Source: a virus | Taxonomy: Duplodnaviria; Heunggongvirae; Uroviricota; Caudoviricetes | Direction: 5' to 3' (one strand) | Virus record (IMG/VR): IMGVR_UViG_3300042549_004104 | Coordinates: 263,353 to 327,352 of that record | DNA length: 64,000 bases | In this document: positions 5,016 through 61,525 of the stretch, one piece after another | Numbering within the stretch: the first letter of the stretch is position 1 | How the letters are laid out: each line of letters begins with the position of its first letter | Notes under the pieces: model-generated | Seen by the model: the letters and a program-made list of their open reading frames with translations, nothing else | The model's database searches: none | What the model was told of the DNA's origin: nothing | Translations under genes and position numbers: made by a program

Positions 5016-5050
5016 TGTCAAAACAAAACACTCACAACGGAGGGTTATCT

Positions 5051-7236: not shown

Positions 7237-7315
7237 ATAAAGATGACCGGCCTTATGGGCTCATCCCGGTATATAAATTCTGCGTCCTATGCTATAATTA
7301 ACATAGGAGAAAATA

Positions 7316-7879: not shown

Positions 7880-8112
7880 GTCCTGAACAACGAATCAAAG
7901 CTGCCGAAGAATGGGCTCAACTAAGAGTAGAGGCCGCAGAGCGTGAGCGTGATGAGGCATTGGGCTTAGTTAGTGCGGCACACTTAGAATTGATACATAG
8001 CATCAAGTATGGATTCAATCCTGGTACTGCACATAGCACACTAATTAGTGTGGGTAGATTAAGCCCAATGTTACAAGCAAGAATGAAACGAATGTTAGAA
8101 GAAAAAGAATGA
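7876..8112 (+). CDS. hypothetical protein
   Basis: ATGA-coupled ORF. Confidence 0.4.
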   Translation: MSPEQRIKAAEEWAQLRVEAAERERDEALGLVSAAHLELIHSIKYGFNPGTAHSTLISVGRLSPMLQARMKRMLEEKE

Positions 8113-8621: not shown

Positions 8622-8804
8622 GAAAAAATATGGTCAAACCAATTAAATTATGGCGTATATGGGCAAAAGCCTTAGGTGAAAAAACGGGAGCTACAAACAC
8701 AGAAGCTGACCACATCGCTTGCATCCGTACAGCAATAGTGATATCATATATTATAACAAACTGTTTTATTATAGCAGGCGTTATACGACATTGGTAATAA
8801 AATT

Positions 8805-9647
8805 ATGAATAAACTAAAAATATCAGAACTGTTTTACAGTGTACAAGGTGAAGGAAGATACATGGGTGTGCCAAGCGTGTTCTTACGCACGTTTGGTTGT
8901 AACTTTAAATGTGCTGGCTTCGGTATGTCTAAAGGAATGGAAAGTACAGAAAGGTTTAAAATAAATGCAGAAACTATTAAATCTTATAAATCACTACCAC
9001 TTGTTAGTACTGGATGTGATAGCTATGCGAGTTGGGATCCACGCTTCAAACATCTCAGTCCTTATTACGACATTGATACTATTGCCGATAATATTGTCAA
9101 TTTACTTCCTCATGGTCGTTGGAAAGATGAGCACTTGGTTATTACGGGTGGTGAGCCGCTCTTAGGCTGGCAACGTGAATATCCAGAGTTGTTATCACAT
9201 GATAATATGCGTGGATTACAAGAAATAACATTTGAAACTAATGGTACACAAATGTTATATCCTGAATTAGTTAATTATTTAAATGAATGGAAGAAACACC
9301 GCTATTTACATTGTCTAACATTCAGCGTAAGTCCTAAACTAAGTATCAGTGGTGAAAATTGGGAAGATGCTATTTGTCCCGATGTTGTTCAACAATATTA
9401 CAATACTGGTTATACTTATTTGAAATTTGTTGTAGCAACTAAAGAAGATGCAGAAGAAGCTGAACAAGCAGTTAATGAATATCGCAAACGTGGATTTAAA
9501 GGTCCTGTGTATCTTATGCCTTGCGGTGGTGTTACAGAACTTTATAATCTTAATAACAGAAAAGTTGCAGAACTTGCAATGCAAAAGGGTTGGCGCTATA
9601 GTGACAGACTACAAGTCCCGTTGTTCAAAAACGAATGGGGAACTTGA
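8805..9647 (+). CDS. queE: 7-carboxy-7-deazaguanine synthase-like radical-SAM protein (QueE family)
   Basis: The N-terminal ELFYSVQGEGRYMGVPSVFLRTFGCNFKC aligns with QueE (E.F.S.QGEG..G.P..F.R..GC...C), and VITGGEPLL matches the SAM-binding GGEP block. The third Cys of the canonical Cx3Cx2C is not in the usual place, so this is a divergent QueE. Confidence 0.7.
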   Translation: MNKLKISELFYSVQGEGRYMGVPSVFLRTFGCNFKCAGFGMSKGMESTERFKINAETIKSYKSLPLVSTGCDSYASWDPRFKHLSPYYDIDTIADNIVNLLPHGRWKDEHLVITGGEPLLGWQREYPELLSHDNMRGLQEITFETNGTQMLYPELVNYLNEWKKHRYLHCLTFSVSPKLSISGENWEDAICPDVVQQYYNTGYTYLKFVVATKEDAEEAEQAVNEYRKRGFKGPVYLMPCGGVTELYNLNNRKVAELAMQKGWRYSDRLQVPLFKNEWGT

Positions 9648-15870: not shown

Positions 15871-16276
15871 CAAATTAAAGAACTTATTCAAGAAAACAGA
15901 AAAGCCTGTTGAATCTAAGAAGCCAACTAAAGCAAAAACTAAGGCTCCAACTAAAGAATTAAGTCTTAAAGAAAAAGCAACACAAGCCGGGGAACCCTAC
16001 ATCAATATTTTAAGTTTAGATATTGATCCCAAAGATATCAACAGCGGTGCATTTGATTTAGACTTTAATGAAATTTTTGTAGCAAGATTAGTCAAAGCTG
16101 GTTACATGATGAGTAAGGATGACAAGGATACTGATATCGTAGATAGATGGTTCCAGCAAGTTTGTAGAAATGTAGTACTTGAGATGTATGAGCAAGTACA
16201 AGCGGATCCCATGAACCGTGACATTCGCCCTATCCAATCACGTGACCTTGGCAATGGACGTACAGAGGTGAGTTAA
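15863..16276 (+). CDS. hypothetical protein with a Lys-rich N-terminus
   Basis: ORF overlapping the uvdE stop. Confidence 0.45.
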   Translation: MFDKLKNLFKKTEKPVESKKPTKAKTKAPTKELSLKEKATQAGEPYINILSLDIDPKDINSGAFDLDFNEIFVARLVKAGYMMSKDDKDTDIVDRWFQQVCRNVVLEMYEQVQADPMNRDIRPIQSRDLGNGRTEVS

Positions 16277-17640
16277 TGATTGGATGGCCAGTACCTCCTA
16301 CTAATTTAAAATATTCTAAATGGTATGACTCGCTAATTAACAAGGCTTTACAAAGAAGCCTACCATTAACTATGTATACAGAACAACACCATATTGTTCC
16401 TAGAAGTTTTGGTGGCAGTGATGACATATCTAATCTAGTTAAACTTACAGCAAGAGAACATTATGTAGCGCATTTATTATTATGGAAGATACGCTTTCCT
16501 AGTGTATACGGTAGTAAAATGTCTTTTGCTTTTGGAACATTTGTTAACAGATTTAAACAAGAATATCATTCCTCATATAAGATAACAAGTAGGATTTATG
16601 CACAATTTAAAAAAGAATATTCTCTGTTGATGAGTGAGCGAATGTCAGGAGAAGGTAATCACTTCTTTGGCAAGACACATTCAGAAGAAACAAGACGAAT
16701 CATAGGTGAAAAGAGCAAGCAAAAGATTTTTAAAAAGGGACCAGAGAATCCAAATTGGGGTAAAAAACAAAATCTTTCTGATGAACAACGTAAAAAGAGA
16801 AGTGAAGGATCCAAAACTAGATGGGGGAACGATGAGTTCCGCAAAAAGATATTAACATCAAGAAAGCTATATTGGGAATCCGAAGAAGGTAGAGTAAGAG
16901 CTAACATATGGGCTGAAGGGCTTCGAGGAGTTAAACTTGATCCAGAACGTGTTGAAAAATCTGCAAGTAAAAAACGAGGGAAAAAAGGCACTGAAATATT
17001 TTCAGAACAAGCATTAGCTAATATACGTGAGGCTAACAAACATAGGATATATTCTGAAGAAGGTTTGGCAAAAATACGAGAGAGTTCAAGAAAAGTTGGA
17101 CAACGCCTCAAGTCAGAAGAACATAAGAAAAGAATTTCAGAATCAAATAAAGGCAAACACAATAATAAAGGTGAAAAAAATCCTATGTTTGGTAAGAAAC
17201 ATTCACCTGAAACAATAGCTAAAATAAAGGAAACAAAAAGAATATCTGCATTGAAAAATGCAAAGCCTAAATTTGTAGGTCCTTTGAAACCCAAAAACAT
17301 GATTACTTTTAGAGGAGTAAATTATGCTAGTATCAAAAAAGCAAGTTCGCATTTCGGTATACCAGTTGGAAAAATAAAAACACAGATAAAACATTGGGGG
17401 GAGAATCCAGACGCAGAAACAATCGCAAAGATTGATTCCGGAAAACTGAAACCACCTATGACAGCCTGGAATAAAGGTAGTATTGGATTGCAAGTTAGTT
17501 GGAATAAAGGTATGGAGGCACCTAAGTTTACATGTGAACATTGTGGTAAGATAGTAGGTGGAAAAACCAATTATATTAGGTATCACCATGATAATTGTAA
17601 ACTAAAAGTATTCACTTTATTGTCAACAAAAAAAGGTTGA
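16276..17640 (+). CDS. HNH homing endonuclease with repeated NUMOD3-like DNA-binding modules
   Basis: HHIVPRSFGGSDDISNLVKLTAREHYVAH HNH motif. At least 6 repeats of the GxxNPxxGKKHSxETxxKI type follow, as in T4 Mob and I-Hmu-type homing endonucleases. Confidence 0.8.
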   Translation: MIGWPVPPTNLKYSKWYDSLINKALQRSLPLTMYTEQHHIVPRSFGGSDDISNLVKLTAREHYVAHLLLWKIRFPSVYGSKMSFAFGTFVNRFKQEYHSSYKITSRIYAQFKKEYSLLMSERMSGEGNHFFGKTHSEETRRIIGEKSKQKIFKKGPENPNWGKKQNLSDEQRKKRSEGSKTRWGNDEFRKKILTSRKLYWESEEGRVRANIWAEGLRGVKLDPERVEKSASKKRGKKGTEIFSEQALANIREANKHRIYSEEGLAKIRESSRKVGQRLKSEEHKKRISESNKGKHNNKGEKNPMFGKKHSPETIAKIKETKRISALKNAKPKFVGPLKPKNMITFRGVNYASIKKASSHFGIPVGKIKTQIKHWGENPDAETIAKIDSGKLKPPMTAWNKGSIGLQVSWNKGMEAPKFTCEHCGKIVGGKTNYIRYHHDNCKLKVFTLLSTKKG

Positions 17641-31609: not shown

Positions 31610-32404
31610 ATGAAACGTATTTTTACTCTCTCTATTATCGCCGTAGCAATTTTGGCTACTGGTTGTACACGTATTGAAACCGGCGAGGTTGGTGTGCGTA
31701 TTGGCTTTGACCGACAAATCAAGTCCGGTGAATTATTGCCCGGTTCATTCAATCAAACTATGATTGGTGATGTATTAACATTCCCCATCAAGGACGTCAA
31801 TGTGGTGCTTGAAAACATGACACCTGTTGCTAAAGACAATTCAACAATGAAAGACTTTGATGCTGTGGTGGTTTACAACATCAACCCACAACAAGTAAGT
31901 GAGTTGTACGCAACCAAGAACAAGAGTTTCCACGCTGATTTCAAGGGAGACACTTATGTGATGTACAACTACATTGTACAAAATGCTCGAAATGCTATTT
32001 ACAAATCAGCCCGCAAGTATGAAGCATTGGACATGGCAGACAATCGCACTGACATGGAAAACTTTATCAAAGAAGAAATTGCTCGAAATCTTGGTGAAGA
32101 AAAACTAGATGGATCAATCACAATCAGTCAAGTGATGATTCGTAATGTGTTGCCCAGTGACACAGTAGTTGAATCTGCAAACGCATTGGTTCGTAGCAAA
32201 AACGAATTGAAACAGAAAGAAGTTGAAGTTAAAACTGCCGAAGCAGAAAGTCGCAGAATGGCAGCATTGGCTAATAACTCGGGTGCTAGTATTGCATTCA
32301 TGCAAGCACAAGCTATGTTGAATATCTCAGAAGGTATCAAGAACGGTCAAGTACAGACTATTGTAGTTCCTAGCAACTTCAATGCATTAATGATGCCTAA
32401 ATAA
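31610..32404 (+). CDS. lipoprotein (lipobox LATGC), possibly SPFH/band-7-like
   Basis: AAGGAAA SD. Signal peptide with a lipobox. The fold assignment is weak. Confidence 0.55.
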   Translation: MKRIFTLSIIAVAILATGCTRIETGEVGVRIGFDRQIKSGELLPGSFNQTMIGDVLTFPIKDVNVVLENMTPVAKDNSTMKDFDAVVVYNINPQQVSELYATKNKSFHADFKGDTYVMYNYIVQNARNAIYKSARKYEALDMADNRTDMENFIKEEIARNLGEEKLDGSITISQVMIRNVLPSDTVVESANALVRSKNELKQKEVEVKTAEAESRRMAALANNSGASIAFMQAQAMLNISEGIKNGQVQTIVVPSNFNALMMPK

Positions 32405-33826: not shown

Positions 33827-35449
33827 ATGTTTTCACGTTTCTTATCAATTTTCACATTTAGTAATGCCACACTATTAGTGGCATTAGCACTTAGTACTAT
33901 CGCCGCATGGTATAGTATTGTCGGTTTAACTGCTATCTTTGCCGCGGCAGTTATACCCATTATCATCATGGGTTCAGCACTTGAACTTGCAAAAATTATA
34001 ACAACTGTTTGGTTGCGTAAGTATTGGCAACGTTGCACATGGATAATGAAAGTTTATCTTGTGCCTGCTGTTGTTGCGCTTGCATTATTGACAAGCATGG
34101 GCATCTTTGGTTTCTTAAGTAAAGCACATTTAGACCAAGCTGTTCCATCTAGTGATATTGCTGCCAAAGTCTCTTTACTAGATGAAAAAATTAAAACTGA
34201 ACGTGATAACATTGATGCGGCTAAAAGAGCACTAACACAAATGGATTCACAAGTTGACCAAATGTTAGGTCGTACTGACAGTGATAGGGGTGCAGAACGT
34301 GCTGTTCAAATTCGTAGACAACAGGCTAAAGAACGTAATGCATTACAAAATGATATTGCCAAATCACAAGCCGTTATAGCTAAGTTAAATGAAGAACGAG
34401 CACCAATCGCAAGCGAACTACGTAAAGTAGAGGCAGAAGTTGGTCCTATAAAATACATTGCCGCATTCATCTATGGTGATAATCCAGACGCTAATTTATT
34501 AGAACGTGCAGTACGTTGGGTAATTATTTTACTTGTTATTGTTTTTGATCCATTAGCAATTATGTTAGTGATTGCGGCTAATCAAAGTAAAGATTGGGAC
34601 AAGGAAGAATTAATTGAAGATGATAAAAATATTATGGCTATCATTCCTCCTAAAGAAGAGGATATAGACCTTTTTACCGAAGAAGAAATACCGGCATTAG
34701 ATACTGAACCTATTGCTACATGGCCCTTTCCCTCTGAAAAAACATCCAGTGTAAAAGAAGAACCTATAACTGAATTTCAAATAGCCAAACAAAATGAAAC
34801 TTTTACAGACAATCAACTTACACAATTAAAAGAATTAATTGCATCATTGTCAAAACCTGAGAAACCAGATTATAGTGATATTGAAATTGTACCAGTACAT
34901 ACAAAGTATGAAGAACCTGTTGTTGAAGTACAACCAGAAGAAATAATTGATGTAATAGAACCAGAAGAAGTTATCAGTGATGACACCCCAAACTACGAAG
35001 GTTTTAAAGATCCTAATACCGGAAAGTGGACACAAACAGGTCCTGATTTTGTTCCAATAACATCACAACCATCATTCGTTAAATTTGACGGGGACTATGC
35101 TGAATACAAAGGTAAACATGTACACAAACGTGTTTTATACGATCAGTTTCCTGAATTAAAATTAGAAGAAGATAAACGCCGTTCATCTAATACAAGATTT
35201 GGTACAGATTTTCCAAACACTAAGATGTTAGGTGATGTATTTGTACGTGTTGATGTAACTCCTAATAGAGTATACAAATACAATGGTGCAAAATGGATAG
35301 AAACAAGTAAAAACATAAGTAGTACATATTTGGCTAATCCAGAATATGTTCAATTTTTAATCGGTAAACTTGCGTCAGGTGAATATGATATGGACCTATT
35401 AACCGTTGACGAACAGGATGCAGTTGAAAAGCATTTAAAAACTGGGTAA
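33827..35449 (+). CDS. membrane protein with N-terminal TM helices, a central coiled coil and an acidic linker
   Basis: Three to four hydrophobic helices in the first 100 aa, a heptad-like region (aa 100-200), another TM around aa 215-240, then an E/P-rich segment. Confidence 0.55.
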   Translation: MFSRFLSIFTFSNATLLVALALSTIAAWYSIVGLTAIFAAAVIPIIIMGSALELAKIITTVWLRKYWQRCTWIMKVYLVPAVVALALLTSMGIFGFLSKAHLDQAVPSSDIAAKVSLLDEKIKTERDNIDAAKRALTQMDSQVDQMLGRTDSDRGAERAVQIRRQQAKERNALQNDIAKSQAVIAKLNEERAPIASELRKVEAEVGPIKYIAAFIYGDNPDANLLERAVRWVIILLVIVFDPLAIMLVIAANQSKDWDKEELIEDDKNIMAIIPPKEEDIDLFTEEEIPALDTEPIATWPFPSEKTSSVKEEPITEFQIAKQNETFTDNQLTQLKELIASLSKPEKPDYSDIEIVPVHTKYEEPVVEVQPEEIIDVIEPEEVISDDTPNYEGFKDPNTGKWTQTGPDFVPITSQPSFVKFDGDYAEYKGKHVHKRVLYDQFPELKLEEDKRRSSNTRFGTDFPNTKMLGDVFVRVDVTPNRVYKYNGAKWIETSKNISSTYLANPEYVQFLIGKLASGEYDMDLLTVDEQDAVEKHLKTG

Positions 35450-35527
35450 ATTGTTACCCAAAATCTCTTGACCAATAAGAGATTCTCTGTTATACTATCA
35501 TCATTGTTTAACTTATTAAAGGTTTTT

Positions 35528-36148
35528 ATGAAACACACACTCACTTTTGTCGCAGTCGTTGCTATTCTAGCAGGTTGCTCCTCAACTAAGACCGCAGTAA
35601 ACCCTGATGAACCTATCAGAAATCAAAAGTTGTCCACAACATTTACAGAGGATAATGTAAAGATTACAACAAATTGTGCATGGTATAAGCCATTTAAATC
35701 TGAATGCGATATAGTTTCTATTGAAGCTACTGCAACTGCATGGACTAATGGTGCAAGTATTGTACAAGTTAATGAAGGTCGTAAGGTTGCTAAAAGCCAA
35801 GCACTAGCAAACGTTAGTCATTTTATCAATACCCAAATCTCAAGTTCACGGATTACAAATGTTATAGCCAAACACGTTGAAAAGGCTAAAGATGAGATGA
35901 AAAATGGTTCAGAAGAATCACAGATGACTGATAAAGAAGCCAAAACAAATAGTACATCGGTTCGTGAAAATTCAAATGATACTGCACGTACAGTAACTAA
36001 TACTATCCGTGAAAATTCTGAATCTATCTTGCGTGGATTTAGAACTGTCAAGGAAGAAAAAGTAGGACAACAAGAAGTTTCAGTTACCGTTCGTTGGGAC
36101 CGCGAAAGTGAGCGAGTTGCTAATGAATTGCGTAAAAGCATGAATTAA
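35528..36148 (+). CDS. lipoprotein (lipobox LAGC)
   Basis: Start taken at MKHTLTFVAVVAILAGCSS with an upstream AAAGG SD. Confidence 0.55.
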   Translation: MKHTLTFVAVVAILAGCSSTKTAVNPDEPIRNQKLSTTFTEDNVKITTNCAWYKPFKSECDIVSIEATATAWTNGASIVQVNEGRKVAKSQALANVSHFINTQISSSRITNVIAKHVEKAKDEMKNGSEESQMTDKEAKTNSTSVRENSNDTARTVTNTIRENSESILRGFRTVKEEKVGQQEVSVTVRWDRESERVANELRKSMN

Positions 36149-36153
36149 TAATC

Positions 36154-37134
36154 ATGCGTTTAATTTTAGCATTGGCAGTTACCCTGTTAACTGCCTGTGC
36201 TACTACGGTAGCACAAAATAAAACTATCCCAATCAGCGTGATAGGTGAAGGAACTACTATCAACGATGCAAAAAACAATGGCTTTCAAAAAGCCATTGAG
36301 CAAGAAGTTGGTGTAGTTCTTTTATCACAAAAACAAATCAAAAATGACAAGCTAAGTAAGGACGAAATTGTATTACATAGTGCAGGTTATATTGACCATT
36401 ATACAGTACTTGATACAGAAAAGGTAAACAACACTTATTACCTAACAATGGATGTTTATGTCAAATCCAGTTCTATCGCAGAAAGAGTGTTAGGGGTATC
36501 AAATAAATCCAAATCTGTCAATGGTGAAAAAATACACGACCAATTTGAAGTATATTCAAAGTACAGAAAAACCGGTGATGAATTGATGAAGGCAGTGTTG
36601 GAAGAATATCCGCATTCTGCATTTATTGTTAAAAATCAAAGAATTGATAGTTCAGGAGTTGTGACAGCAATAGATAAAAATAGAAATCCTGTGTTTATTG
36701 TACCCTTTGAAGTAAGTTATAATTATAACTTTCTAAAATCGTTTAATGAGGCTTTAAAAGCTACAAGCGATAAAGAAATAAAAGGTCATGTCCAACAACG
36801 TAAAATTAGGGTGATTAGTAAAAAACCCGGTAGTGTTTGGGGTAGTACTGATTCATATTTTATCAACGATATACAACGTGATGAATTGATTAAGCAACAT
36901 TTTGTTGGTAAATTATATGTAAAATTAATTGCATTAGACGGAGCAGGGAAGAGATTATTTCATACATGCCAAACCTTTGCCGGGGAAGAAGATACAATTT
37001 ATTTGAACAAAGAATTTACAATTAATGGTAATGACGTTTTTGAAAATGAATTGGCATTTACATTTAAGAAAAATCACCCCATAATGAAAGAAGTCAGTTC
37101 TTATGTATTGACTGTTCATAAAGGAAAATGTTAG
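36154..37134 (+). CDS. lipoprotein (lipobox LTAC)
   Basis: Starts MRLILALAVTLLTACATT. Confidence 0.55.
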   Translation: MRLILALAVTLLTACATTVAQNKTIPISVIGEGTTINDAKNNGFQKAIEQEVGVVLLSQKQIKNDKLSKDEIVLHSAGYIDHYTVLDTEKVNNTYYLTMDVYVKSSSIAERVLGVSNKSKSVNGEKIHDQFEVYSKYRKTGDELMKAVLEEYPHSAFIVKNQRIDSSGVVTAIDKNRNPVFIVPFEVSYNYNFLKSFNEALKATSDKEIKGHVQQRKIRVISKKPGSVWGSTDSYFINDIQRDELIKQHFVGKLYVKLIALDGAGKRLFHTCQTFAGEEDTIYLNKEFTINGNDVFENELAFTFKKNHPIMKEVSSYVLTVHKGKC

Positions 37135-37184: not shown

Positions 37185-38387
37185 ATGTCCGAAGAAAATA
37201 AACCAATAAATTATTGTAGCTTTTGCAACAACCACAAAGATGCTGTTAAAAAACTAGTAGTCGGTGGTTCTGTTGCTATATGTAGTGATTGCGTTGAATT
37301 ATGCCAAGAACTCATAACTGATGGAGTTGTTGAACCTACAACAAAAGAATCCAATCCAGATTACGATCCAGAGTCCATAAAAGAATACCTAGATCAACAT
37401 GTCATTGGACAAGATGATGCTAAAAAGGTTCTCAGCGTAGCCATTGCTAATCACTATAAACGGATAAATAATCCTCCTAAAGATTTAGAAATACAAAAAG
37501 GCAATGTACTTATTGTAGGTCCGACAGGTAGTGGCAAAACCTTACTTGCAAAGACTGCGGCTAAATATCTTAAAGTGCCCTTCGTTGTAGCTGATGCAAC
37601 TAGTTTAACCGAAGCAGGTTATGTAGGTGATGATGTTGAATCAATGATTAACATGTTGCTCAATGCGGCTAACGGTGATAAAGACTTAGCCGAGCGTGGT
37701 ATCGTATTTGTTGATGAAATTGACAAAATTGCCCGAAAGAGTGAGAGTGTTAGTATAACACGTGATGTATCAGGTGAGGGAGTACAACAAGCATTACTCA
37801 AATTAGTTGAAGGTACAGTATGTCGCATAGCAGGAAGCGGTGGCAGAAAACATCCTGGTGCCGACATGCTTGAAATAAACACAAAAAACATATTATTCAT
37901 TGCAGGCGGGGCTTTTGTTGGATTGAAGGAAGTAATAGGAAATAGATTAAATGGAACAAGTATCGGGTTTCAAGCGGCTATCAAAGATAATAAAAAAGAG
38001 GGTGAACTAAGCAAAGTTACCCCTGATGATTTAACAAAGTACGGAATGATTCCAGAATTCATAGGTAGATTTACTACTACAGTTAGTATTGATGAATTAG
38101 ATAAAGAACAGTTGATTCATATCTTAACCGATGTTAAAAATAATTATATCAGCCAATACAAATATTTGCTTAAATTAGATAATATCGAACTTACATTTAC
38201 CCAAGATGCATTGGAACAAATGGCAGAAAATTCATTAACTCTGAAAACAGGGGCTCGTGGATTGCATACAGAAATTGAGCGAGTATTAATGCCGCATATG
38301 TTCCTCACCAAATCATACCGTCAAAATAACATAAAATTGCTAAATATTAACAAGGAGCAGATTTTAAATCCAAAATCTTTGTTATGA
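37185..38387 (+). CDS. clpX: ClpX AAA+ unfoldase
   Basis: N-terminal C4 zinc-binding domain (CSFCNN...CSDCVELC). Walker A GPTGSGKT. GYVG pore-1 loop. Walker B IVFVDEIDKI. IGF ClpP-docking loop (SIGFQAA). Confidence 0.93.
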   Translation: MSEENKPINYCSFCNNHKDAVKKLVVGGSVAICSDCVELCQELITDGVVEPTTKESNPDYDPESIKEYLDQHVIGQDDAKKVLSVAIANHYKRINNPPKDLEIQKGNVLIVGPTGSGKTLLAKTAAKYLKVPFVVADATSLTEAGYVGDDVESMINMLLNAANGDKDLAERGIVFVDEIDKIARKSESVSITRDVSGEGVQQALLKLVEGTVCRIAGSGGRKHPGADMLEINTKNILFIAGGAFVGLKEVIGNRLNGTSIGFQAAIKDNKKEGELSKVTPDDLTKYGMIPEFIGRFTTTVSIDELDKEQLIHILTDVKNNYISQYKYLLKLDNIELTFTQDALEQMAENSLTLKTGARGLHTEIERVLMPHMFLTKSYRQNNIKLLNINKEQILNPKSLL

Positions 38388-38596
38388 GTAAGAAAATTCC
38401 AGTATTTGACAACAATGTAGAGAAAGCATTACGTAAACTTAAAAAAAAGTTAACCGAATCCGGTTTACTACAAGAGGTCAGAGAACGTCAGGAATTTGTC
38501 AAACCAACCATAAAAAAGAAGATTGCCAAAAGTCAAGCAAAAAGACGTTGGAAGAAACACTTGCGTGACCAACAATTGCCCCCTAAAATGTACTAA
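38384..38596 (+). CDS. rpsU: ribosomal protein bS21
   Basis: 70 aa, basic. FDNNVEKALRKLKKKLTESGLLQEVRERQEFVKPTIKKKIAKSQAKRRW aligns with E. coli S21 ([44 protein letters not shown]). ATGA-coupled to clpX. Confidence 0.85.
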   Translation: MSKKIPVFDNNVEKALRKLKKKLTESGLLQEVRERQEFVKPTIKKKIAKSQAKRRWKKHLRDQQLPPKMY

Positions 38597-38703
38597 CCCA
38601 ATTATATACAAATATTTTACGTAATCATATAAAATAGATATATACATGTAGATGCTGTAAAGGTCTACAGTTTTAAAAATCTTGCTTAACAAAGGAGAAC
38701 ATT

Positions 38704-40593
38704 ATGAGCAAAGTCATCGGTATCGATTTGGGTACCACAAATTCATGCGTAGCCGTTATTGAGAACGGAATCCCCAAAGTAATTGAAAACAGTGAAGGTG
38801 CTAGAACAACACCAAGTATTGTCGCCTATACAGACGAAATTCTTGTTGGTGCTAGTGCTAAACGTCAAGCAGTTACTAATCCAAAAAACACAATTTATGC
38901 AGCCAAGCGTTTGATCGGTCGTAAATTTACCGAAGAAGCTGTACAAAAAGATATCAACTTGATGCCTTACAAAATTGTTGCTAATGACAACGGTGATGCA
39001 TGGGTTCAAGTAAATGAAGATAAACTAGCACCTCCACAAATCAGTGCAGAAGTCTTACGCAAAATGAAAAAGACTGCGGAAGATTATCTCGGTGAAGAAG
39101 TTACACAAGCAGTTATTACTGTTCCCGCATATTTCAATGATAGTCAAAGACAAGCAACCAAAGACGCAGGACGTATTGCCGGTCTAGAAGTATTGCGTAT
39201 CATTAACGAACCTACAGCAGCCGCATTGGCGTATGGTGTAGATAAACAAGACAAGCGTGACCGTAAAGTTGCAGTGTACGACTTAGGTGGTGGTACATTT
39301 GATGTATCTATCATTGAATTGGCAGATGTTGATGGTGACAAACAAATTGAAGTATTGTCCACAAACGGAGACACATTCTTAGGTGGTGAAGACTTTGACC
39401 AACGAATCATGGATTTCTTGGTTGACGAATTCAAAAAGGATCAAGGCGTTGATTTGACTAAAGATGTGTTAGCATTGCAACGACTTAAAGAAGCCGCAGA
39501 AAAGGCTAAGATTGAGTTGAGTAGTTCAGTACAAACAGATGTTAACTTACCGTACATCACCGCAGATGCAAATGGCCCTAAACATTTGAACGTTAAGTTG
39601 ACACGTAGCAAACTAGAACAACTAGTTGAAGAACTTATCAAACGTAGTATCGAGCCTTGCAAGACAGCAATGAAAGATGCCGGTGTAAGTGCTAGTGACA
39701 TTGACGAAATTATCTTAGTTGGCGGCATGACACGTATGCCTAAGGTACAAGAAGAAGTTGAAAAACTATTCGGCAAAGCACCACGCAAAGATGTTAACCC
39801 TGATGAAGCAGTAGCAGTTGGTGCCGCAGTTCAAGGCGCAGTACTAAGTGGTGAGCGCAAAGACGTATTGTTGCTTGACGTTACTCCATTGAGTTTGGGT
39901 ATTGAAACAATGGGCGGTGTAATGAGCAAATTGATTGCTAAGAACACAACAATTCCAACTAAACAAAGTCAAACATTCAGTACAGCCGAAGATAATCAAC
40001 AAGCAGTTACAATCAAAGTGTTCCAAGGTGAGCGTGAGATTGCAAAATACAATAAAGGTCTAGGTGAATTTAACTTAGATGGTATTGCACCAGCACCCCG
40101 CGGAGTACCTCAGATTGAAGTTACTTTTGATATTGACGCAAATGGTATCATGCATATCAGTGCTAAAGACAAAGGTACGGGCAAAGAAAACAAAATCACT
40201 ATTAAGAGTAATAGTGGTTTGAGCGAAAGTGAAATTCAGCAAATGGTTAAAGATGCTGAGGACAATGCAGAAACAGACAAGAAAGCACGTGAATTGATTG
40301 AAGCACGTAATGGAGCAGAATCAACATTGAATGGCTTCCGTAATGACTTTGAAAAGTACAAAGACCAAGTTACAGAAGAAGAACGTACTAAAGCAGAAGA
40401 AGCATTAAAAGCAGTTGAATATGCGATTCTAGGTGATGACGCAACAGTTATCCAAGAATCTATTCCTAAACTATATGAAGCAATTGGTCCTATCACTAAG
40501 GTTAAACACGATGCTGAAGAAGCAGAGAAGAAACAATCACAAGAAGCAGATGTGGTTGATGCAGAAGTTAAAGAGTCCGCAGAGACTGTTTAA
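38704..40593 (+). CDS. dnaK: DnaK (Hsp70) chaperone
   Basis: [22 protein letters not shown] and [11 protein letters not shown] signatures. Full-length 629 aa with the C-terminal substrate-binding domain. Confidence 0.97.
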
Positions 40594-40662
40594 CTAAATT
40601 AGTCGGGTGCCATATAGGATGGACCCGACATGTCATAACTTGCTTAATAAAGGAGAAACAAA

Positions 40663-41106
40663 ATGACAAGAGAATTAACGTTACGTTCAATAGATATTCC
40701 ATCTATCCATAGATTCGGAATAGGATTTGATTCAATGCTTGATGAACTACTGAGAACAACAAGTCAACCACAAGGTAACTATCCACCGCACAATGTAATT
40801 AAGACAGGAGATGAAACTGTATTAATTGAGGTTGCAATTGCAGGATTTGATGAAGGTGAAATTTCTATCACAGTAGAAAACAATACATTATTGATTTCCG
40901 GTCAACAAAATAAAAATGATCCAATCAATTATGAATATCTACATCGTGGATTGAGTAGCAGAAACTTTATCCAAAAGTTCAAATTGGCTGAACATGTTGA
41001 AGTTATTGACGCATCTATTAAAAACGGAGTTCTTTCTGTCTTACTAGAGCGTAAAATGCCAGAAGATAAGAAACCCAAGAACATTGCAATAAACTACAAT
41101 AAATAA
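40663..41106 (+). CDS. ibpA: small heat-shock protein IbpA/Hsp20 (alpha-crystallin domain)
   Basis: Collinear with E. coli IbpA: GNYPPHNV, AIAGFDEGEISI, NFIQKFKLAEHV, KKPKNIAIN. Confidence 0.92.
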   Translation: MTRELTLRSIDIPSIHRFGIGFDSMLDELLRTTSQPQGNYPPHNVIKTGDETVLIEVAIAGFDEGEISITVENNTLLISGQQNKNDPINYEYLHRGLSSRNFIQKFKLAEHVEVIDASIKNGVLSVLLERKMPEDKKPKNIAINYNK

Positions 41107-41168
41107 TATAATAGCATATCGTAAATAAAAGTGTGCGGGAAACTGCACACTTTCAATGAAAGCACAAC

Positions 41169-41477
41169 ATGGCACAAACTGAAACAAGAATTAGAATTAG
41201 ACCCAATTTGAAAGTACCTGAACCCCCAATGTTCAAGGTAATTTATATGAACGATAATCACACTTCAATAGAGTTTGTCGTTAAAAGTTTGATTGACCAT
41301 TTTAATTATACAGAGGATACTGCATCATCTATTACTACAGGAATTCATGAATCCGGTAGTGCAGTTGTTGCTGTGTTGCCCTTTGAAATTGCAGAACAAA
41401 AGGGAATTGAAGTTACACTTGATGCCAGAAACCAAGGGTATCCACTTCAAGTTAAAATAGAAGCCGACGCAACTTAA
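41169..41477 (+). CDS. clpS: ClpS N-degron adaptor protein
   Basis: EPPMFKVIYMNDNHTSIEFVVKSL aligns with E. coli ClpS [24 protein letters not shown]. About 100 aa. Confidence 0.85.
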   Translation: MAQTETRIRIRPNLKVPEPPMFKVIYMNDNHTSIEFVVKSLIDHFNYTEDTASSITTGIHESGSAVVAVLPFEIAEQKGIEVTLDARNQGYPLQVKIEADAT

Positions 41478-42169
41478 AGATTTATTTCAATGCGTTTTGC
41501 AAAGTATGGTTCAACATCATACTTTGCGTTATTCACATAGTTGATGTTATTAATTTTAGTGTCAACAAACTTATCATAAGTTCCATATATCCACTTAGTT
41601 ACTTTGTGTTCTGTGTCTTTGTATAGAACATATCCGGGGAAGATATCCTCATCATTCACATCGTTCTCACCGAAGTACAATTCTCTGAGTGGAACGCAAC
41701 TACTGATAATGACTACCTTTTTAACGTCAACATGTAGTTGTAATTTTTCAAGTGTTTTCTCAAGGTATGCAATATCGTCATATCTAAAACATTTTAAATG
41801 AAAATCATCTAGGATGCTGTTTTCTATCTTTTTATTGCTCCAACCGTTTAAACCTAATAATGCGATTCCGTCAACTACAACTACGTTATTGTGTAAGTAA
41901 ATGACGTTTCTAAAACTACTACACAGTTTAGCTATTTCATTGGATCTAGTATCTCTATCAACGATACCTTGATTTTCTAATGTTCCGTCAATAAAAAACA
42001 CCCCGTGATATAAACCACTGAGGTGTTTCAAAGTTTTATGTAAAACAGTTATATCGGTTGTGATGTTTCCAGCAACTATACAGAATAAACTAGTAGGTTT
42101 ACCCTCCCAATTGAATTCATCGTTTGGGGTTAAATTTAAGTCACTGATAACATCAAAACCATATATCAT
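41474..42169 (-). CDS. hypothetical protein; possibly a degenerate calcineurin-like phosphoesterase
   Basis: Minus-strand ORF. Motif-like blocks ISDLNL, AGNITTD and IDGTLENQ resemble metallophosphoesterase (MPE) motifs I-III, but the key His residues are replaced. Confidence 0.5.
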   Translation of the reverse strand: MIYGFDVISDLNLTPNDEFNWEGKPTSLFCIVAGNITTDITVLHKTLKHLSGLYHGVFFIDGTLENQGIVDRDTRSNEIAKLCSSFRNVIYLHNNVVVVDGIALLGLNGWSNKKIENSILDDFHLKCFRYDDIAYLEKTLEKLQLHVDVKKVVIISSCVPLRELYFGENDVNDEDIFPGYVLYKDTEHKVTKWIYGTYDKFVDTKINNINYVNNAKYDVEPYFAKRIEINL

Positions 42170-42468
42170 GACGCTTTTGGTTTAGCTTTAGTGACTTTAG
42201 CTTTTACAGCCTTAGCCCCATCAACTGCATCTTTCAAATTAACCTTGCCATCTTGATTAACATCCAGTGCTTTTTTGGCACGGGCAGTAGTCTTTTTAGC
42301 AACTTCTTTGACTGCGGTTACTTCGGCCTTAACTTCAGCAATAACCTCTTTAGCAACTTCCTCAACCTTAGCAACTTCTTGTTGCACAGCTGGGTTTTTG
42401 CTTCCGTATTGATTGTATAACACATAACCAATCACTATAATAATAGCAATAATGATAATAACTTCCAT
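42166..42468 (-). CDS. membrane-anchored Lys/Ala-rich helical protein
   Basis: N-terminal TM (VIIIIAIIIVIGYVLY) followed by EVAKEV-type repeats and a KAKVTKAKPK tail. Confidence 0.5.
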   Translation of the reverse strand: MEVIIIIAIIIVIGYVLYNQYGSKNPAVQQEVAKVEEVAKEVIAEVKAEVTAVKEVAKKTTARAKKALDVNQDGKVNLKDAVDGAKAVKAKVTKAKPKAS

Positions 42469-42536
42469 AGTAAATCTCCTTCAATTAATATTTATGATCC
42501 GTAGTCCCAAAGAAGATTTTTTTCATAAATACATAT

Positions 42537-43028
42537 ATGAACCTATCTAATTATTCACTCATAGATATGATGGATCTTCCCTTGCCCCCGATCCATGTTC
42601 AGAAAAAATTAGCATATAGGCCAACTGCAAAAGACGTAAAACATGTTTATAAACAACTAAACGAGTACGTATTCGAAAATCAATTAGTAATACCGTCAAT
42701 ACACCTAGTACCTAGATGTAGAAAATACTGGGGTATGTGTATGGGTGAAATAGAAATTTATAAGACCGGAAGCTATTGTGAGATTAAACTTATGGATAAA
42801 TGGTTTTGCCCTCAATGGTTTGTGACCACATTAGCGCATGAAATGGTTCACCAATATCAATGGGACATATTAGGCCCCGAACGTGAAAAGAACGGAAAAG
42901 ATTGGTTAATGAGTCACGGACCATCTTTCTTTCGATTTCGTGAAAATTTAGAACAGTATGGAATAAGTCTCAAAACTGCACATAGTCAAAGACGCTGGTT
43001 TAAACATCAAAATCTGTTCAGGGCATAA
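42537..43028 (+). CDS. HExxH zinc metallopeptidase-like protein (SprT-like)
   Basis: HEMVHQYQWD motif with size and placement typical of SprT/WLM-like proteins. Confidence 0.45.
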   Translation: MNLSNYSLIDMMDLPLPPIHVQKKLAYRPTAKDVKHVYKQLNEYVFENQLVIPSIHLVPRCRKYWGMCMGEIEIYKTGSYCEIKLMDKWFCPQWFVTTLAHEMVHQYQWDILGPEREKNGKDWLMSHGPSFFRFRENLEQYGISLKTAHSQRRWFKHQNLFRA

Positions 43029-43037
43029 ATACGTATT

Positions 43038-44567
43038 ATGCGTGATTTAATAGACTTAATAAAACTACTCGAAGGTGACGGTGCTACTGAAGGAACAGAC
43101 GGCGTAAAGGCTAAAGGTTTGTATCCCGATGAATTAAAAAAGCGTGACAACTTTAACATCTTTATAGGTAAAATAAATAAAGGCCTTCCTTTTATATACC
43201 ACCCAACAGGTGAAGAGGTTTATATCAAACGTAGCGAAGCAAATAAAATAAAGCAACTGTTTGATACTGGACAGTTGATTGGTAAAAAAATTACCATTAT
43301 GACTAATGATGGCAATCAAATTAACTTAGGTGAATTAAGAAAGACTGAGGAGTTTGGCGGAAGCTCTAAGGAAAACTTAAAATTAAAACCATCAACAATA
43401 GGCATAACTGATAGAGACATTGCTGCCACTGACTTGTATAATGAGATAAAAAATAACAGTGTATTAAACAGCACTGACTATGGAAAAATTGTAATTCAAT
43501 TAGCAGAATACATTGTTGCAGGTGAGTATGTTCAATTACCACCTGAAATGTTGGAAAAAGATAAAGAATCAGAACGTAAGGCTATTGTTGATTATGCAGG
43601 TGAATATTTGGGTGTATTAGCATTATTATATCAACGTACAAGATTCCCAAGAAAGCAACAATTTACGCAATGGTTAGGTGGTGATTTGGGTGATTTAATT
43701 TTAAATTTCCCTAGTAAAGCAAATAACAATATTGCAGATAGTTATGCTACGATTACTAACCCTAACACAAGTCATAGTTTAAACATTTCTAGTAAAGGTA
43801 CTGGAGGTGGGGCAGCACCGGCTGTTAGTGGATTGAAATTAAGTGATGATGTTAAGCGTAATGCTAAACTTAAAGATGCAGTAAAACTTATTGAACTATG
43901 TCAAGTAAAATCAACATCCGGGCCAAGTACTATCATCCAAGCATTTAAAGTAGCAGACTTAGTTTACATGAATAAGCCTGATAGCTTTCCAAAAGAATTT
44001 CAAAAGATAATGCCAACATCATCTAAAGCTCCTAAATTGATAGACCAATGTATTGAAAGCATTAATAGTGGAATGATGTTACCCAAATTATATCAACCAC
44101 TTATCAATGATATCGCTAGTGAAAAAGCTACTGACGGCGGTAAAATGGTTTATAAGTTGAAAAAAATTGTTGCCCATGCAATTAACGAAGGTGGTGCAAT
44201 ACCTGAATTTAGAGATACTATTCTTCAAGTATTAGAAATGAATTTCATACAACAATACACTGATTATAATCCAAACGGTGAATTGACATTTGCCACACAA
44301 TGGCCATCTAAACTAGACGGTGTAGTTACTTTAGAAAATAAATCTAGTGCTGTTGAGCCAAGTAGTGCTGGTTTTAGTTTTAAACTAGGTAGAAACGCTA
44401 GTGACTACGCTGATCCAGGACCAGACGGAGAAGTTGGTGCACCAACAATATCAGCTAACGATGATGTTGAGCAACAGGCACAAGATATCGTTGAACCAAG
44501 AGTCATCAAAAAACAAAACAATGATGAGATTGGTGTAGGTCGTGAAAAGAGACCAAAAAGTAGATAA
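43038..44567 (+). CDS. hypothetical protein (509 aa)
   Basis: Long ORF between the SprT-like gene and clpP. Confidence 0.5.
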   Translation: MRDLIDLIKLLEGDGATEGTDGVKAKGLYPDELKKRDNFNIFIGKINKGLPFIYHPTGEEVYIKRSEANKIKQLFDTGQLIGKKITIMTNDGNQINLGELRKTEEFGGSSKENLKLKPSTIGITDRDIAATDLYNEIKNNSVLNSTDYGKIVIQLAEYIVAGEYVQLPPEMLEKDKESERKAIVDYAGEYLGVLALLYQRTRFPRKQQFTQWLGGDLGDLILNFPSKANNNIADSYATITNPNTSHSLNISSKGTGGGAAPAVSGLKLSDDVKRNAKLKDAVKLIELCQVKSTSGPSTIIQAFKVADLVYMNKPDSFPKEFQKIMPTSSKAPKLIDQCIESINSGMMLPKLYQPLINDIASEKATDGGKMVYKLKKIVAHAINEGGAIPEFRDTILQVLEMNFIQQYTDYNPNGELTFATQWPSKLDGVVTLENKSSAVEPSSAGFSFKLGRNASDYADPGPDGEVGAPTISANDDVEQQAQDIVEPRVIKKQNNDEIGVGREKRPKSR

Positions 44568-44572
44568 CCATA

Positions 44573-44620
44573 ATGCTTGACCTAATAAGAAATTACATAT
44601 ATAATGTAGTTTTATAATAA
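44573..44620 (+). promoter_or_regulatory. candidate sigma70-like promoter upstream of clpP (cTTGACCtaataagaaattacataTATAAT)
   Basis: Read from the sequence; -35 TTGACC, 17-nt spacer, TATAAT. Confidence 0.5.
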
Positions 44621-44632
44621 GGAAAGTATAGT

Positions 44633-45220
44633 ATGAGTTTAGTCCCAATCGTTATCGAACAAACAAGCAAAGGTGAGCGTAGTTATGATATCTACAGCCG
44701 CTTATTGCGTGACCGTGTAATTTTGCTTGAGGGCGAAGTACATGACCAAATGGCAAATCTTATCGTTGCCCAATTACTATTTTTAGAATCAGAAGGTGAT
44801 AAAGATATTTCAATGTATATCAATAGTCCTGGTGGTAGTGTAACTGCTGGCATGGCAATCTATGATGCAATGCAATTTGTCAAACCAGAGATTCACACAA
44901 TCGTTATGGGTCAAGCATGTAGTATGGGTAGTTTGCTTGCACAAGCAGGCTCATCTGGCAAACGTTTTATGTTGCCAAATGCACGGCACATGATTCATCA
45001 GCCTTCAGGTGGCGCACGTGGACAAGCAACTGATATGCTGATTCAGGTCAATGAAATTCTTGAAATGAAAAAGAACCTCACAGAAATCTATGTTAAGCAT
45101 AATTCAAAAGGTAAAACTTTTGACGTACTTCATGCTGATATGGAACGAGATAATTTTATGAGTAGCCAACAAGCACTTGATTATGGTCTTGTAGACGAAA
45201 TAGTTACAAAACGCGGTTGA
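44633..45220 (+). CDS. clpP: ClpP serine protease
   Basis: Nearly collinear with E. coli ClpP: [48 protein letters not shown] (catalytic Ser), HQP (His). Confidence 0.96.
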
Positions 45221-47241: not shown

Positions 47242-47378
47242 ATAAATTTACTTTGCAAAAAAATAGTTGGATTTCATTTGAAATGTTGCTAGTGTGTATT
47301 GCACTAGTAGGATTTCCCTTTATGATATTTTGTTTAGCAACAGGGATAAAATTAGCAGAATTAATGTTTGGATAAGTA

Positions 47379-48220
47379 TGAAAATAGCAGTATGCAGTGA
47401 CCTTCATTTAGAGTTTATGGACATTATCCTCAAGAACGAGGAAGATGCAGAGGTCCTCATCCTGTCCGGCGACATTATGATTGCCGAAGATTTACACAAT
47501 CATCCACCCGTACATCCCAATGATCCTGTTAATATCCCGAACTTAGGTCGTAGACAAGAAACTGCATTACGATTCCGTGACTTCCTAAGTCGTTGTAGTT
47601 TTCAATTTCCGCATGTTTTATATATAGCGGGTAATCATGAATTCTATCATGGTCGTTGGAGTGCTAGTATCCAACACTTGCGTGACGAGTGTGCAAGATA
47701 TCCTAATGTTTATTTCCTTGAAAATGATATCAAGGTTATCAATGATATAACATTCATTGGTGCAACACTATGGACAGACTGTAACAAAGCTGATCCATTA
47801 ACATTGCATGCCTTGCAAGACATGATGAATGACTTTAGAGTGATTCGGAATGATGAACTTGGATACACTAAATTGCGTCCTGCTCATATTGCTATGCGCC
47901 ACAAGAAAACTTTAGAATACTTCAAAATTGTACTAAGTAACTTGAAGGAAGATAAAGTAGTTATCGTTGGTCATCACAGTCCTAGTCATTTGAGTATCCA
48001 TGAAAAATACAAAGGTCAAGACTTGATGAACGGTGGATATCACAGTGACTTGAGTGAATTCATTTTGGATCATCCCCAAATTAAAGTATGGACTCATGGT
48101 CATACACATGATCCATTTGACTATATGATTGGTGAAACACGAATCGTATGTAATCCGAGAGGTTACAGTGGTTGGGACGAAAATGCGGATAAATTCCAAT
48201 TAAAATATATAGAATTATGA
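47379..48220 (+). CDS. calcineurin-like metallophosphoesterase
   Basis: The MPE motifs are present in order: VCSDLH, GDIM, GNHEF, GHHSP, GHTHD. Start taken at MKIAVCSDLH; the ORF track begins at 47294. Confidence 0.75.
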
Positions 48221-58878: not shown

Positions 58879-59094
58879 ATGGCAAAAGAAGAGGGCATTA
58901 AGATGGACGGCAAGGTAATAGATGTATTACCAAATGCCGTTTTTAAAGTACAAATGGAAGCTGGACCTACAATAACAGGATACATCAGCGGCCGCATGCG
59001 TAAGCATGATATTAAAATATTATTGGGTGACACTGTAGAAGTAGAATTTAGTCCATATGACCTAACCAAAGGTCGCATTACTCGCCGCAGATAA
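58879..59094 (+). CDS. infA: translation initiation factor IF-1
   Basis: 71 aa. Collinear with E. coli IF1: [67 protein letters not shown] versus [67 protein letters not shown]. Confidence 0.92.
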
Positions 59095-60973: not shown

Positions 60974-61525
60974 ATGTACGATATTGTAGAGAAAATCAAC
61001 GAATCCCGAACAAAAAAAATAGAGATAGTTAATCTGTCCTACGATCTTTCCGACCTCAATCCAGTACTTAGCAAGAAAACACTAGACTATCACTATGGTG
61101 ATTTAGCCCATGGATACACTACCCGATACAACAAGGGTGAAGGCGACAAAGATTTCAACTATGCAGGCGCTTTTCTGCACAACATTTACTTTCCACAGTT
61201 TCGCAAGATACAAGAAGATAACACTCCTAATGGTCCTGTACTAGGAATCATCAAGCGCAAATACGATTGGTGGAGAGACTTTAAAGAACAATTCAAAATA
61301 GAAGCCATGAAGATACAGGGCAGTGGTTGGATTTATATGAGTTATGACGGTGAGATAAAGACTATTGCTAACCACGAGGTTCGTGATGATATTCTTATTC
61401 TTGTAGACTGGTGGGAACATGCCTGGGCCTTAGACTACCAAGCAGATAAAAAAAGTTACCTAGAAAACACTTGGAAGATAATGAACTGGAGCCACATTAA
61501 CACTAGGTGGGGGAAGAATTTATGA
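60974..61525 (+). CDS. sod: Fe/Mn superoxide dismutase family protein
   Basis: DYHYGDLAHGYTTRYN aligns with EYHYGKHHQTYVTNLN. AGAFLHNIYF aligns with NHTFYW. QGSGWIYM aligns with FGSGWTWL. LILVDWWEHAWALDYQADKKSYLENTWKIMNW aligns with [32 protein letters not shown]. The metal ligands H, H, D and H are all present. Confidence 0.85.
   Translation: MYDIVEKINESRTKKIEIVNLSYDLSDLNPVLSKKTLDYHYGDLAHGYTTRYNKGEGDKDFNYAGAFLHNIYFPQFRKIQEDNTPNGPVLGIIKRKYDWWRDFKEQFKIEAMKIQGSGWIYMSYDGEIKTIANHEVRDDILILVDWWEHAWALDYQADKKSYLENTWKIMNWSHINTRWGKNL

Follow-up and report, generated by a model that had tools for sequence, protein, structure and literature searches.

A cluster comprising clpX, a homologue of rpsU (ribosomal protein bS21), dnaK, hsp20, clpS, a SprT-like protease gene and clpP was found at positions 37,185 to 45,220 of a 64,000-nucleotide stretch of DNA from a Caudoviricetes virus (positions 263,353 to 327,352 of the IMG/VR record IMGVR_UViG_3300042549_004104). 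This stretch, hereafter the window, represents 64 kb of the genome, of about 360 kb, of an uncultivated freshwater jumbo phage. The cluster is real, conserved and phage-borne, and it constitutes a new arrangement and lineage of a known class of phage accessory genes. It is probably an auxiliary protein-quality-control cluster, long resident in uncultivated freshwater jumbo phages whose likely hosts are Burkholderiales.

The gene calls rely on a list of open reading frames (ORFs) and on Pfam scans of about 40 ORFs of the window. The seven genes, which the original prediction had described as a proteostasis block, were all confirmed where it had placed them (Table 1). They are not alone, however: three genes that had gone unmentioned, encoding proteins of 231, 100 and 509 amino acids (aa), also lie inside the block.

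A phage-borne cluster conserved in its lineage

All seven proteins belong to bacterial-type housekeeping families, and many database 'phage' records with closer DnaK or ClpX matches are evidently host contamination. Both facts would fit a bacterial heat-shock or Clp region that was mis-joined during assembly, or that lay on a cellular replicon. This explanation has next to no chance of being correct. The exact 509-aa protein was found on a JGI contig of 359,425 bp and, in other samples, on at least 15 further contigs, with the same neighbours throughout; the same junctions thus recur in at least 15 independent contigs, and they are also present in 80 diverged viral contigs. GC content is uniform over the window (about 0.36) and, at third codon positions (GC3), is 0.22 to 0.35 for the genes of the block, like that of their neighbours, so that both values match the phage; five sampled Burkholderiales dnaK genes had an overall GC of 0.39 to 0.59. 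The order clpX...clpP is unlike the bacterial order tig-clpP-clpX-lon. In a database of 5.8 billion proteins, the best 120 DnaK matches, 82 to 100% identical, lie on metagenome contigs no longer than about 360 kb, and we infer that they belong to the same phage lineage; for cellular DnaK proteins, identity reaches no more than about 73%. Host contamination and chimeric assembly, a concern already raised with the original prediction, were therefore rejected on the grounds of recurrence, synteny and composition, and can be regarded as effectively refuted: the block is phage-encoded. The window and the flanks of the contig also encode a family-B DNA polymerase, an ATP-dependent ligase, an exonuclease, a homing endonuclease, a GH19/LysM endolysin and a virion-protein-like gene. 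The search for near-identical DNA among GenBank phages returned only a 36-bp match, which indicates that the phage has no close cultured relative.

A ClpX scan of IMG/VR yielded 196 relatives, and 80 loci, on contigs of up to 524 kb and with ClpX proteins 63 to 85% identical, were kept for synteny counts. Searches with the window proteins (tblastn and blastp) revealed a conserved gene order over these 80 loci: 540-aa protein, (two lipoproteins), ClpX, (bS21), (DnaK), Hsp20, ClpS, 231-aa protein on the minus strand, (SprT), (509-aa protein), ClpP, where the members in parentheses are the less constant ones. ClpX, Hsp20, ClpS, the 231-aa protein and ClpP were present in nearly all loci (76 of the 80 for hsp20, 71 for the 231-aa gene). 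The distribution of bS21 is patchy (about 52 loci), and dnaK was found in 22 loci, always between bS21 and hsp20. On a neighbour-joining tree of ClpX, the core is present in all clades, the basal clades having the core only, and dnaK is confined to a crown clade and to one subclade whose near relatives lack it. From this tree, the ancestral core appears to be ClpX-Hsp20-ClpS-(dead phosphoesterase)-ClpP, with DnaK in derived clades only; part of the lineage would have added DnaK and bS21 later. The lineage is large and abundant: its ClpX relatives in IMG/VR number at least 196, and its protein clusters at 90% identity run into the hundreds. That ClpX, ClpP, ClpS and the small heat-shock protein (sHsp) have been retained for so long argues that large phages are under selection to control folding and proteolysis in their hosts, and do not merely pick up such genes now and then.

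Selection was estimated against a related ENA contig, which encodes a DnaK 95% identical to that of the window. The ratio of nonsynonymous to synonymous substitution rates (dN/dS) was 0.04 to 0.11 for every gene of the block, the three uncharacterised ones included (0.04 for clpX and for bS21, 0.05 for the 231-aa gene). The block appears to be under strong purifying selection, and its proteins look functional.

Among species representatives of GTDB, the closest cellular DnaK proteins are those of Rhodoferax, Limnohabitans, Polaromonas, Rubrivivax and Polynucleobacter, all Burkholderiales, with 72 to 74% identity over 626 columns. In a neighbour-joining tree, 20 phage DnaK sequences were monophyletic and placed beside or within the Burkholderiales. 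The base composition of dnaK now matches that of the phage. This fits a single, old capture of dnaK from a host of this order, after which the composition of the gene ameliorated and some phages lost it, and the kinship of DnaK suggests that the host range lies within this order. When 50%-identity representatives were searched exhaustively with ClpX, the three top matches were at 66%, 60% and 55%, and we take them to be members of the phage lineage or near it; the rest were at 44 to 54%. No recent cellular donor of ClpX is therefore visible, none of the likely cellular sequences being closer than about 55%. The second-best representative (P0242) is 1238 aa long with three ClpX-like stretches, and may be a fused or tandem ClpX. 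As to recent capture or long residence, which had been left to be distinguished, ClpX shows no recent donor, and DnaK would be a capture, but an old one.

Table 1. Coordinates of the genes and signals in and around the cluster
Feature	Position in window	Strand	Description
540-aa membrane/coiled-coil protein and two predicted lipoproteins (226 and 326 aa)	33827-37134	+	Upstream neighbours
clpX	37185-38387	+	400 aa; Pfam zf-C4_ClpX, AAA_2, ClpB_D2-small
rpsU homologue (bS21)	38384-38596	+	70 aa; Pfam Ribosomal_S21, 58 bits; phrog_21469
dnaK	38704-40593	+	629 aa, full-length Hsp70; Pfam HSP70, 862 bits
hsp20 (IbpA-like)	40663-41106	+	147 aa; Pfam HSP20, 60 bits; phrog_432, 127 bits
clpS	41169-41477	+	102 aa; Pfam ClpS, 78 bits
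Metallophosphoesterase-fold homologue	41474-42169	-	231 aa; convergent with clpS
100-aa ORF	42166-42468	-	Hydrophobic N-terminus, Lys/Ala-rich tail
SprT/Spartan-like zinc metalloprotease	42537-43028	+	163 aa; Pfam SprT-like, 27.5 bits (cut-off 25.6)
Lineage-specific 509-aa protein	43038-44567	+	No Pfam family
Near-consensus sigma-70-type promoter	44577-44605	+	TTGACC-17-TATAAT, 28 nt before the clpP start
clpP	44633-45220	+	195 aa; Pfam CLP_protease, 259 bits
Other near-perfect promoter sites (examples)	15778, 19492, 25706, 25998, 26439, 27425, 32746, 45499, 46388, 58133	+	

Functional residues of the encoded proteins

Identities and motifs were determined by alignment to the E. coli K-12 proteins (NC_000913.3). 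Identity was 66.7% for DnaK, 60.5% for ClpP, 51.1% for ClpX, 39.9% for Hsp20 (against IbpA) and 32.7% for ClpS. ClpS and Hsp20, which had been thought very close to the E. coli proteins, therefore turn out to be the two most distant of the set. The alignments were also inspected for mutated catalytic residues, and the key residues of ClpX, ClpP, ClpS and DnaK were invariant, or nearly so, among 20 to 60 lineage sequences.

ClpX matched a solved ClpX chain with 407 bits. Its zinc-binding domain (zf-C4_ClpX, E = 4e-12) was recognised by Pfam, and the equivalents of C15, C18, C37 and C40 were invariant among 60 lineage sequences, as were the Walker A and B motifs, the GYVG pore-1 loop, the Arg finger and sensor II. 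The RKH loop was nearly invariant (H230 replaced by N in 7 of the 60). In the IGF loop, G269 and F270 were present in all 60 sequences and I268 in 59, with M in the remaining one. The zinc-binding domain, the GYVG loop and the IGF loop originally attributed to ClpX are thus all present.

ClpP matched solved ClpP chains with 249 bits. The predicted Ser-His-Asp triad was recovered as S97, H122 and D171, the first two present in all 48 lineage sequences aligned and the third in 47 (one sequence being gapped). The start of the phage protein coincides with the N-terminus of mature E. coli ClpP, so that it has no propeptide. In the hydrophobic pocket that docks the IGF/LGF loops (Y60, Y62, F82, I90, M92, F112, L114 and L189), Y62, F82, I90 and L114 were invariant over the same 48 sequences and M92 nearly so, while Y60 is mostly Ser and F112 varies. 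As catalytic and docking motifs are kept, phage ClpX and ClpP can plausibly assemble into a phage ClpXP protease.

ClpS matched solved ClpS chains with E-values of about 1e-11 to 1e-12. In 56 phage sequences, the residues that bind the alpha-amino group of the N-degron (N34, D35, T38 and H66) were invariant. Among those that contact the N domain of ClpA, E79 and E82 were found in 56 of 56, and K84 in nearly all (R in 8, L in 1). The hydrophobic pocket is unlike that of E. coli: M62 is replaced by T in 55 sequences and by S in one, and P39 by S, T or A across the lineage. The gatekeeper M40 was kept in 50 of the 56, the copy in the window having Ile. With these changes, substrate specificity may differ. 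Relatives of this ClpS were found in PA5oct-like Pseudomonas phages and, by the tally of organisms, in Phosso; the phage matches listed one by one, which do not include Phosso, are 32 to 37% identical.

The DnaK match covers positions 1 to 595 of the 599 of the HSP70 profile. The catalytic residues D8, K70, E171, D194, T199 and D201 were invariant among 20 lineage sequences, and R167, N170 and T173, which contact DnaJ, were conserved in them, making it plausible that phage DnaK works with host co-chaperones. Hsp20 has an alpha-crystallin domain and a C-terminal I-x-I motif (I-A-I, compared with I-E-I in IbpA). Its relatives occur in 508 phage records, mostly cyanophages, and it belongs to a widespread family of phage sHsps. 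The start of the bS21 gene overlaps the stop of clpX (ATGA), and bS21 is predicted to be translationally coupled to clpX through this overlap. At 38640-38685, the spacer between bS21 and dnaK contains a hairpin (TGTAGA...TCTACA) and, after it, a T-run; this may be a weak terminator, or an attenuator, in front of the inserted dnaK.

Proposed role in protein quality control and comparison with known systems

That the phage re-programs host protein quality control had been proposed from the outset. A role in rewiring or supplementing it is what can most reasonably be inferred. During infection, the phage would add its own ClpXP degradation capacity, and ClpS would redirect or occupy host ClpA-ClpP. 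The sHsp would hold unfolded or aggregating proteins, which DnaK would refold with host DnaJ, GrpE and ClpB, and bS21 would enter host ribosomes. There are precedents: phage bS21 has been cited as becoming part of E. coli ribosomes (PMC9723584), and mass spectrometry of virions detected ClpP and ClpX of phage G (PMC12484599). Together, these activities might sustain production in a cell under heavy load, rid it of particular host or phage proteins, or both; the purpose could be extra capacity for a large virion proteome or selective degradation.

Several points weigh against this reading. In the window, ClpS comes without ClpA, its cognate unfoldase, by tblastn or Pfam, and DnaK comes without DnaJ or GrpE. 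The genes clpX and clpP lie 6 kb apart with two minus-strand genes between them, and so do not form one operon. In the docking pocket of ClpP, Y60 is replaced by Ser in 36 of the 48 sequences and F112 is variable, so that docking may differ from the E. coli model; the proposed assembly of ClpX with ClpP is itself read from motifs only. Several genes of the block have no evident link to proteostasis, and the clustering may partly reflect an accessory-gene hot-spot.

Partner genes were searched for with E. coli ClpA, DnaJ and GrpE by tblastn, in the window and in the 80 loci with ±10-kb flanks, a range that leaves about 275 kb of the genome outside; only the AAA+ domain of ClpX was matched. The Pfam scans of the window ORFs found no DnaJ, GrpE or ClpA family. 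The earlier remark that DnaJ and GrpE are not seen holds, then, for the window and for the flanks of the 80 related loci, and no ClpB has been seen so far. Scans of IMG/VR gave weak negatives, as they used E. coli-specific peptide seeds and kept the best 80 loci: none of the best 80 loci for the ClpA seed was on a ClpX-bearing contig, and the DnaJ seed gave 3 unrelated loci only. ClpS serves as adaptor for unfoldases of the ClpA/ClpC type, and ClpX is not one of these (PMC6102473, PMC7824862). Because of this, and because the window is without ClpA, the description of the block as a complete ClpXP protease together with its adaptor ClpS had to be abandoned. ClpXP accompanied by a ClpS aimed at host ClpA appears a likelier arrangement.

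The same proteins could conceivably serve virion morphogenesis, with ClpP acting as or with a head-maturation protease, ClpX, Hsp20 and DnaK as assembly chaperones, and bS21 boosting late translation. PHROGs places ClpP in head-maturation-protease families, and RefSeq gives the same label to the 68%-identical protein of Atu_ph07. ClpP and ClpX of phage G were detected by virion proteomics (PMC12484599), and bS21 is co-transcribed with late structural genes in Bacteroidota phages (PMC9723584). We nevertheless consider this role unlikely. Within the 64-kb window and the 10-kb flanks examined, nothing recognisable as a gene for a portal, capsid, scaffold or terminase protein was seen. ClpP has 195 aa, stands alone as a canonical ClpP, is 60% identical to that of E. 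coli and largely keeps its ClpX-docking residues, and the host-type consensus promoter that precedes it is more typical of early genes. Phage prohead proteases of the ClpP clan are encoded among or beside portal, scaffold and major capsid genes and are often fused to a scaffold; over the window and flanks, clpP has no such neighbours.

The nearest ClpP proteins in cultured phages are those of Atu_ph07 and Phosso (68% identical). The Atu_ph07 protein (NC_042013.1, 463650-464234) is a head maturation protease in RefSeq and a Clp proteolytic subunit in GenBank, and PHROGs (phrog_94) also calls canonical ClpP a head maturation protease. Such mislabelling may distort gene-context statistics; earlier surveys that counted prohead proteases close to bS21 may have had true ClpP among them (PMC9723584).

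Targeted proteolysis, for counter-defence or takeover of the host, was also considered. ClpXP and ClpS would then destroy specific host proteins (defence effectors, antitoxin-controlling factors or host regulators), or would block host ClpAP, and the chaperones would be secondary. The ClpA-binding residues kept in ClpS fit this proposal, as do the changes at M62 and P39, which suggest an altered substrate choice, and the early-type promoter before clpP. It has also been argued that the patchily distributed peptidases and ClpS of jumbo phages are deployed against the host (Iyer et al., PMC7824862). On the other hand, no substrate, adaptor or degron was identified, the module is conserved within the lineage and not patchy, and strong purifying selection is not the mark of arms-race dynamics. 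On balance this proposal, too, seems improbable. A more elaborate scheme, in which we place little confidence, is an insulated degradation system: ClpX and ClpP with its remodelled pocket (Y60S) would be largely independent of host unfoldases, the altered ClpS (M62 to Thr, P39 to Ser or Thr) would capture host ClpA and re-specify the N-termini that are destroyed, and sHsp and DnaK would buffer the proteome stress that results. If true, bacterial degron pathways would be taken over by virus-encoded proteins, in a way conserved over hundreds of freshwater jumbo phages.

An auxiliary quality-control cluster remains our preferred reading, and it can be compared with what is known of other phages. 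The combination of genes had been presented as unusual; it is less so than thought, since kindred gene sets exist in Atu_ph07, phage G, the moraphages and bS21-bearing phages, and ClpP, ClpS, SprT-like, Hsp20 and ClpX proteins have been catalogued in jumbo phages by Iyer et al. (PMC7824862). Atu_ph07 encodes ClpX, ClpA, ClpB, ClpP, ClpS and DnaJ, scattered over its genome (PMC6102473), and an Hsp20 was noted in it (PMC7824862); an Atu_ph07-like S21 has been reported, AP-J-162 being similar (PMC11242549). The Atu_ph07 group (Atu_ph07, Sinorhizobium phage AP-J-162 and Phosso) thus shares ClpX, ClpP, ClpS, Hsp20 and bS21 with the window, its ClpX being 48 to 51% identical. It differs in that the genes are scattered over 470 to 490 kb, with clpX near topoisomerase genes and clpP elsewhere, and in having ClpA, ClpB and DnaJ with no DnaK reported, whereas the block is a single conserved 8-kb cluster with DnaK, and with no ClpA, ClpB or DnaJ seen so far.

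Phage G, a Bacillus megaphage, has adjacent clpP and clpX genes (gp257-gp258), both of whose products were found by mass spectrometry of particles (PMC12484599). It shares this pair with the window (ClpX 48.5% identical) but differs by the adjacent, bacterial order clpP-clpX, by its Gram-positive host, and in that no ClpS/DnaK/Hsp20 cluster has been described for it. The moraphages (Perez-Hernandez et al. 2025, PMC12619734) encode DnaK, DnaJ, Hsp20 and ClpA, their DnaK being derived from Flavobacteriales. Like the window phage, they are uncultivated freshwater jumbo phages with DnaK and Hsp20, DnaK having come from the lineage of the presumed host. They differ in that their DnaK nests in Flavobacteriaceae, in their DnaJ and near-core ClpA, and in a genome of at most 307 kb, against about 360 kb here. 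The DnaK of the window, of Burkholderiales kinship, and its Clp set (ClpX, ClpP and ClpS, with no ClpA or DnaJ seen) are unlike this pattern. Set apart by DnaK, Clp content and genome size, the window phage most likely belongs to a different lineage; its membership in the moraphages was judged unlikely in view of the Burkholderiales kin of its DnaK.

In the survey of Chen et al. (2022), Hsp20 was counted within ten genes of phage bS21 in 127 of 900 published genomes; for two Clp protease families, the counts were 50 and 47 (PMC9723584). The proximity of bS21 to Hsp20 and Clp protease genes is therefore shared; that study had a Bacteroidota focus, with bS21 among late structural genes, and it describes neither this cluster, with its ClpX, ClpS and DnaK, nor the lineage. 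The ClpXP, ClpAP-ClpS and IbpAB-DnaK/DnaJ/GrpE-ClpB systems of E. coli belong to the same families, with catalytic, pore-loop and partner-contact residues conserved. The bacterial linkages (tig-clpP-clpX-lon, clpS-clpA, dnaK-dnaJ) differ from the phage cluster, which is further distinguished by a ClpP without propeptide, by Y60S in ClpP and M62T in ClpS, and by having no ClpA, DnaJ, GrpE or ClpB in it. No paper describing this cluster or lineage was found among open-access papers and bioRxiv preprints. The cluster offers a compact set for testing the self-sufficiency of phage ClpXP and the hijacking of host ClpA by ClpS.

Neighbouring genes, promoters and other features

The 231-aa protein, wedged between clpS and the SprT-like gene, had no match in Pfam or PHROGs. 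BLASTP aligned it with an intact phosphoesterase of the window (47294-48220; E = 1e-4), relative to which all its metal-binding His/Asp motifs are replaced (HH by SC, GHTH by GTY). It is a conserved pseudoenzyme with a metallophosphoesterase fold. The 100-aa ORF gave weak, sub-threshold Pfam matches only; it was found in few related loci and is poorly conserved.

In the SprT-like protein, the motif H101-E102-x-x-H105 and H127 were invariant among 34 homologues. Searching the PDB by sequence yielded nothing above noise. An AlphaFold2 model (mean predicted local distance difference test, pLDDT, 89) had human SPRTN (6mdx, 6mdw) as its best PDB matches in Foldseek (E = 8e-5, probability 1.0, template-modelling score 0.52 to 0.56). 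SPRTN is a DNA-protein-crosslink protease, and SprT-like genes have been catalogued in jumbo phages (PMC7824862). The family assignment originally made is thus upheld by Pfam, by the HExxH motif with its additional His and by the SPRTN fold, which makes a DNA-associated protease more likely than one of general quality control. The 509-aa protein possibly has a PD-(D/E)xK nuclease-like core. The SprT-like protein, the dead phosphoesterase and the 509-aa protein are probably conserved neighbours that act on something else, linked to DNA in the case of SprT.

Upstream of clpX, the gene for the 540-aa protein was syntenic with clpX in 74 of the 84 sequences searched (the 80 loci, contigs of the identical genome, and the window). 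Neither this protein nor the two predicted lipoproteins has a Pfam family; they are syntenic neighbours of clpX for which a membrane or lipoprotein character is predicted. About 5 kb upstream of clpX lies a gene for an SPFH/Band 7 protein (stomatin/HflK-like; 31610-32404), which about 11 related loci, and L259, also carry upstream of the cluster, at 68 to 92% identity. As SPFH proteins of bacteria are regulators of membrane proteases, the phage protein may be a further quality-control accessory.

On the plus strand of the window, 18 near-perfect TTGACA-N17-TATAAT sites were found (at most 1 mismatch; 10 of them perfect), compared with 2.0 ± 1.3 expected from shuffled sequences. Nearly all are located 28 to 60 nt before small ORFs, and one precedes clpP. 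When the block was scanned for terminators and promoters, their total numbers did not exceed those in shuffled sequences, and only near-perfect promoters were enriched. The sigma-70 consensus sites suggest transcription by the host RNA polymerase, as for early genes. Scans of the window revealed no Rfam family and no tRNA.

A few other genes may be mentioned. A second translation-related gene besides bS21 encodes a 71-aa IF-1 homologue (58879-59094; Pfam eIF-1a). A 454-aa homing-endonuclease-like ORF (16276-17640; phrog_655) is flanked by an endonuclease gene and by a helicase-like gene, the TTG start of the latter overlapping the end of the ORF. Genes at 4994-5725, 6760-7236, 7316-7879, 8109-8621 and 8805-9647 encode, respectively, GTP cyclohydrolase I, a cytidylyltransferase-like protein, a 6-pyruvoyl-tetrahydropterin synthase (QueD-type), a 2-oxoglutarate-Fe(II) oxygenase and a QueE-like radical S-adenosylmethionine protein; this gene cluster (4994-9647) resembles a 7-deazaguanine (queuosine-type) base-modification pathway. 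An Fe/Mn superoxide dismutase gene lies inside the window (60974-61525). Just beyond its end (L175, 13821-14831) are an IscU (NifU_N) gene and two IscA-type Fe-S assembly genes, and upstream of it (L174) are genes for a ferritin and a fatty-acid desaturase.

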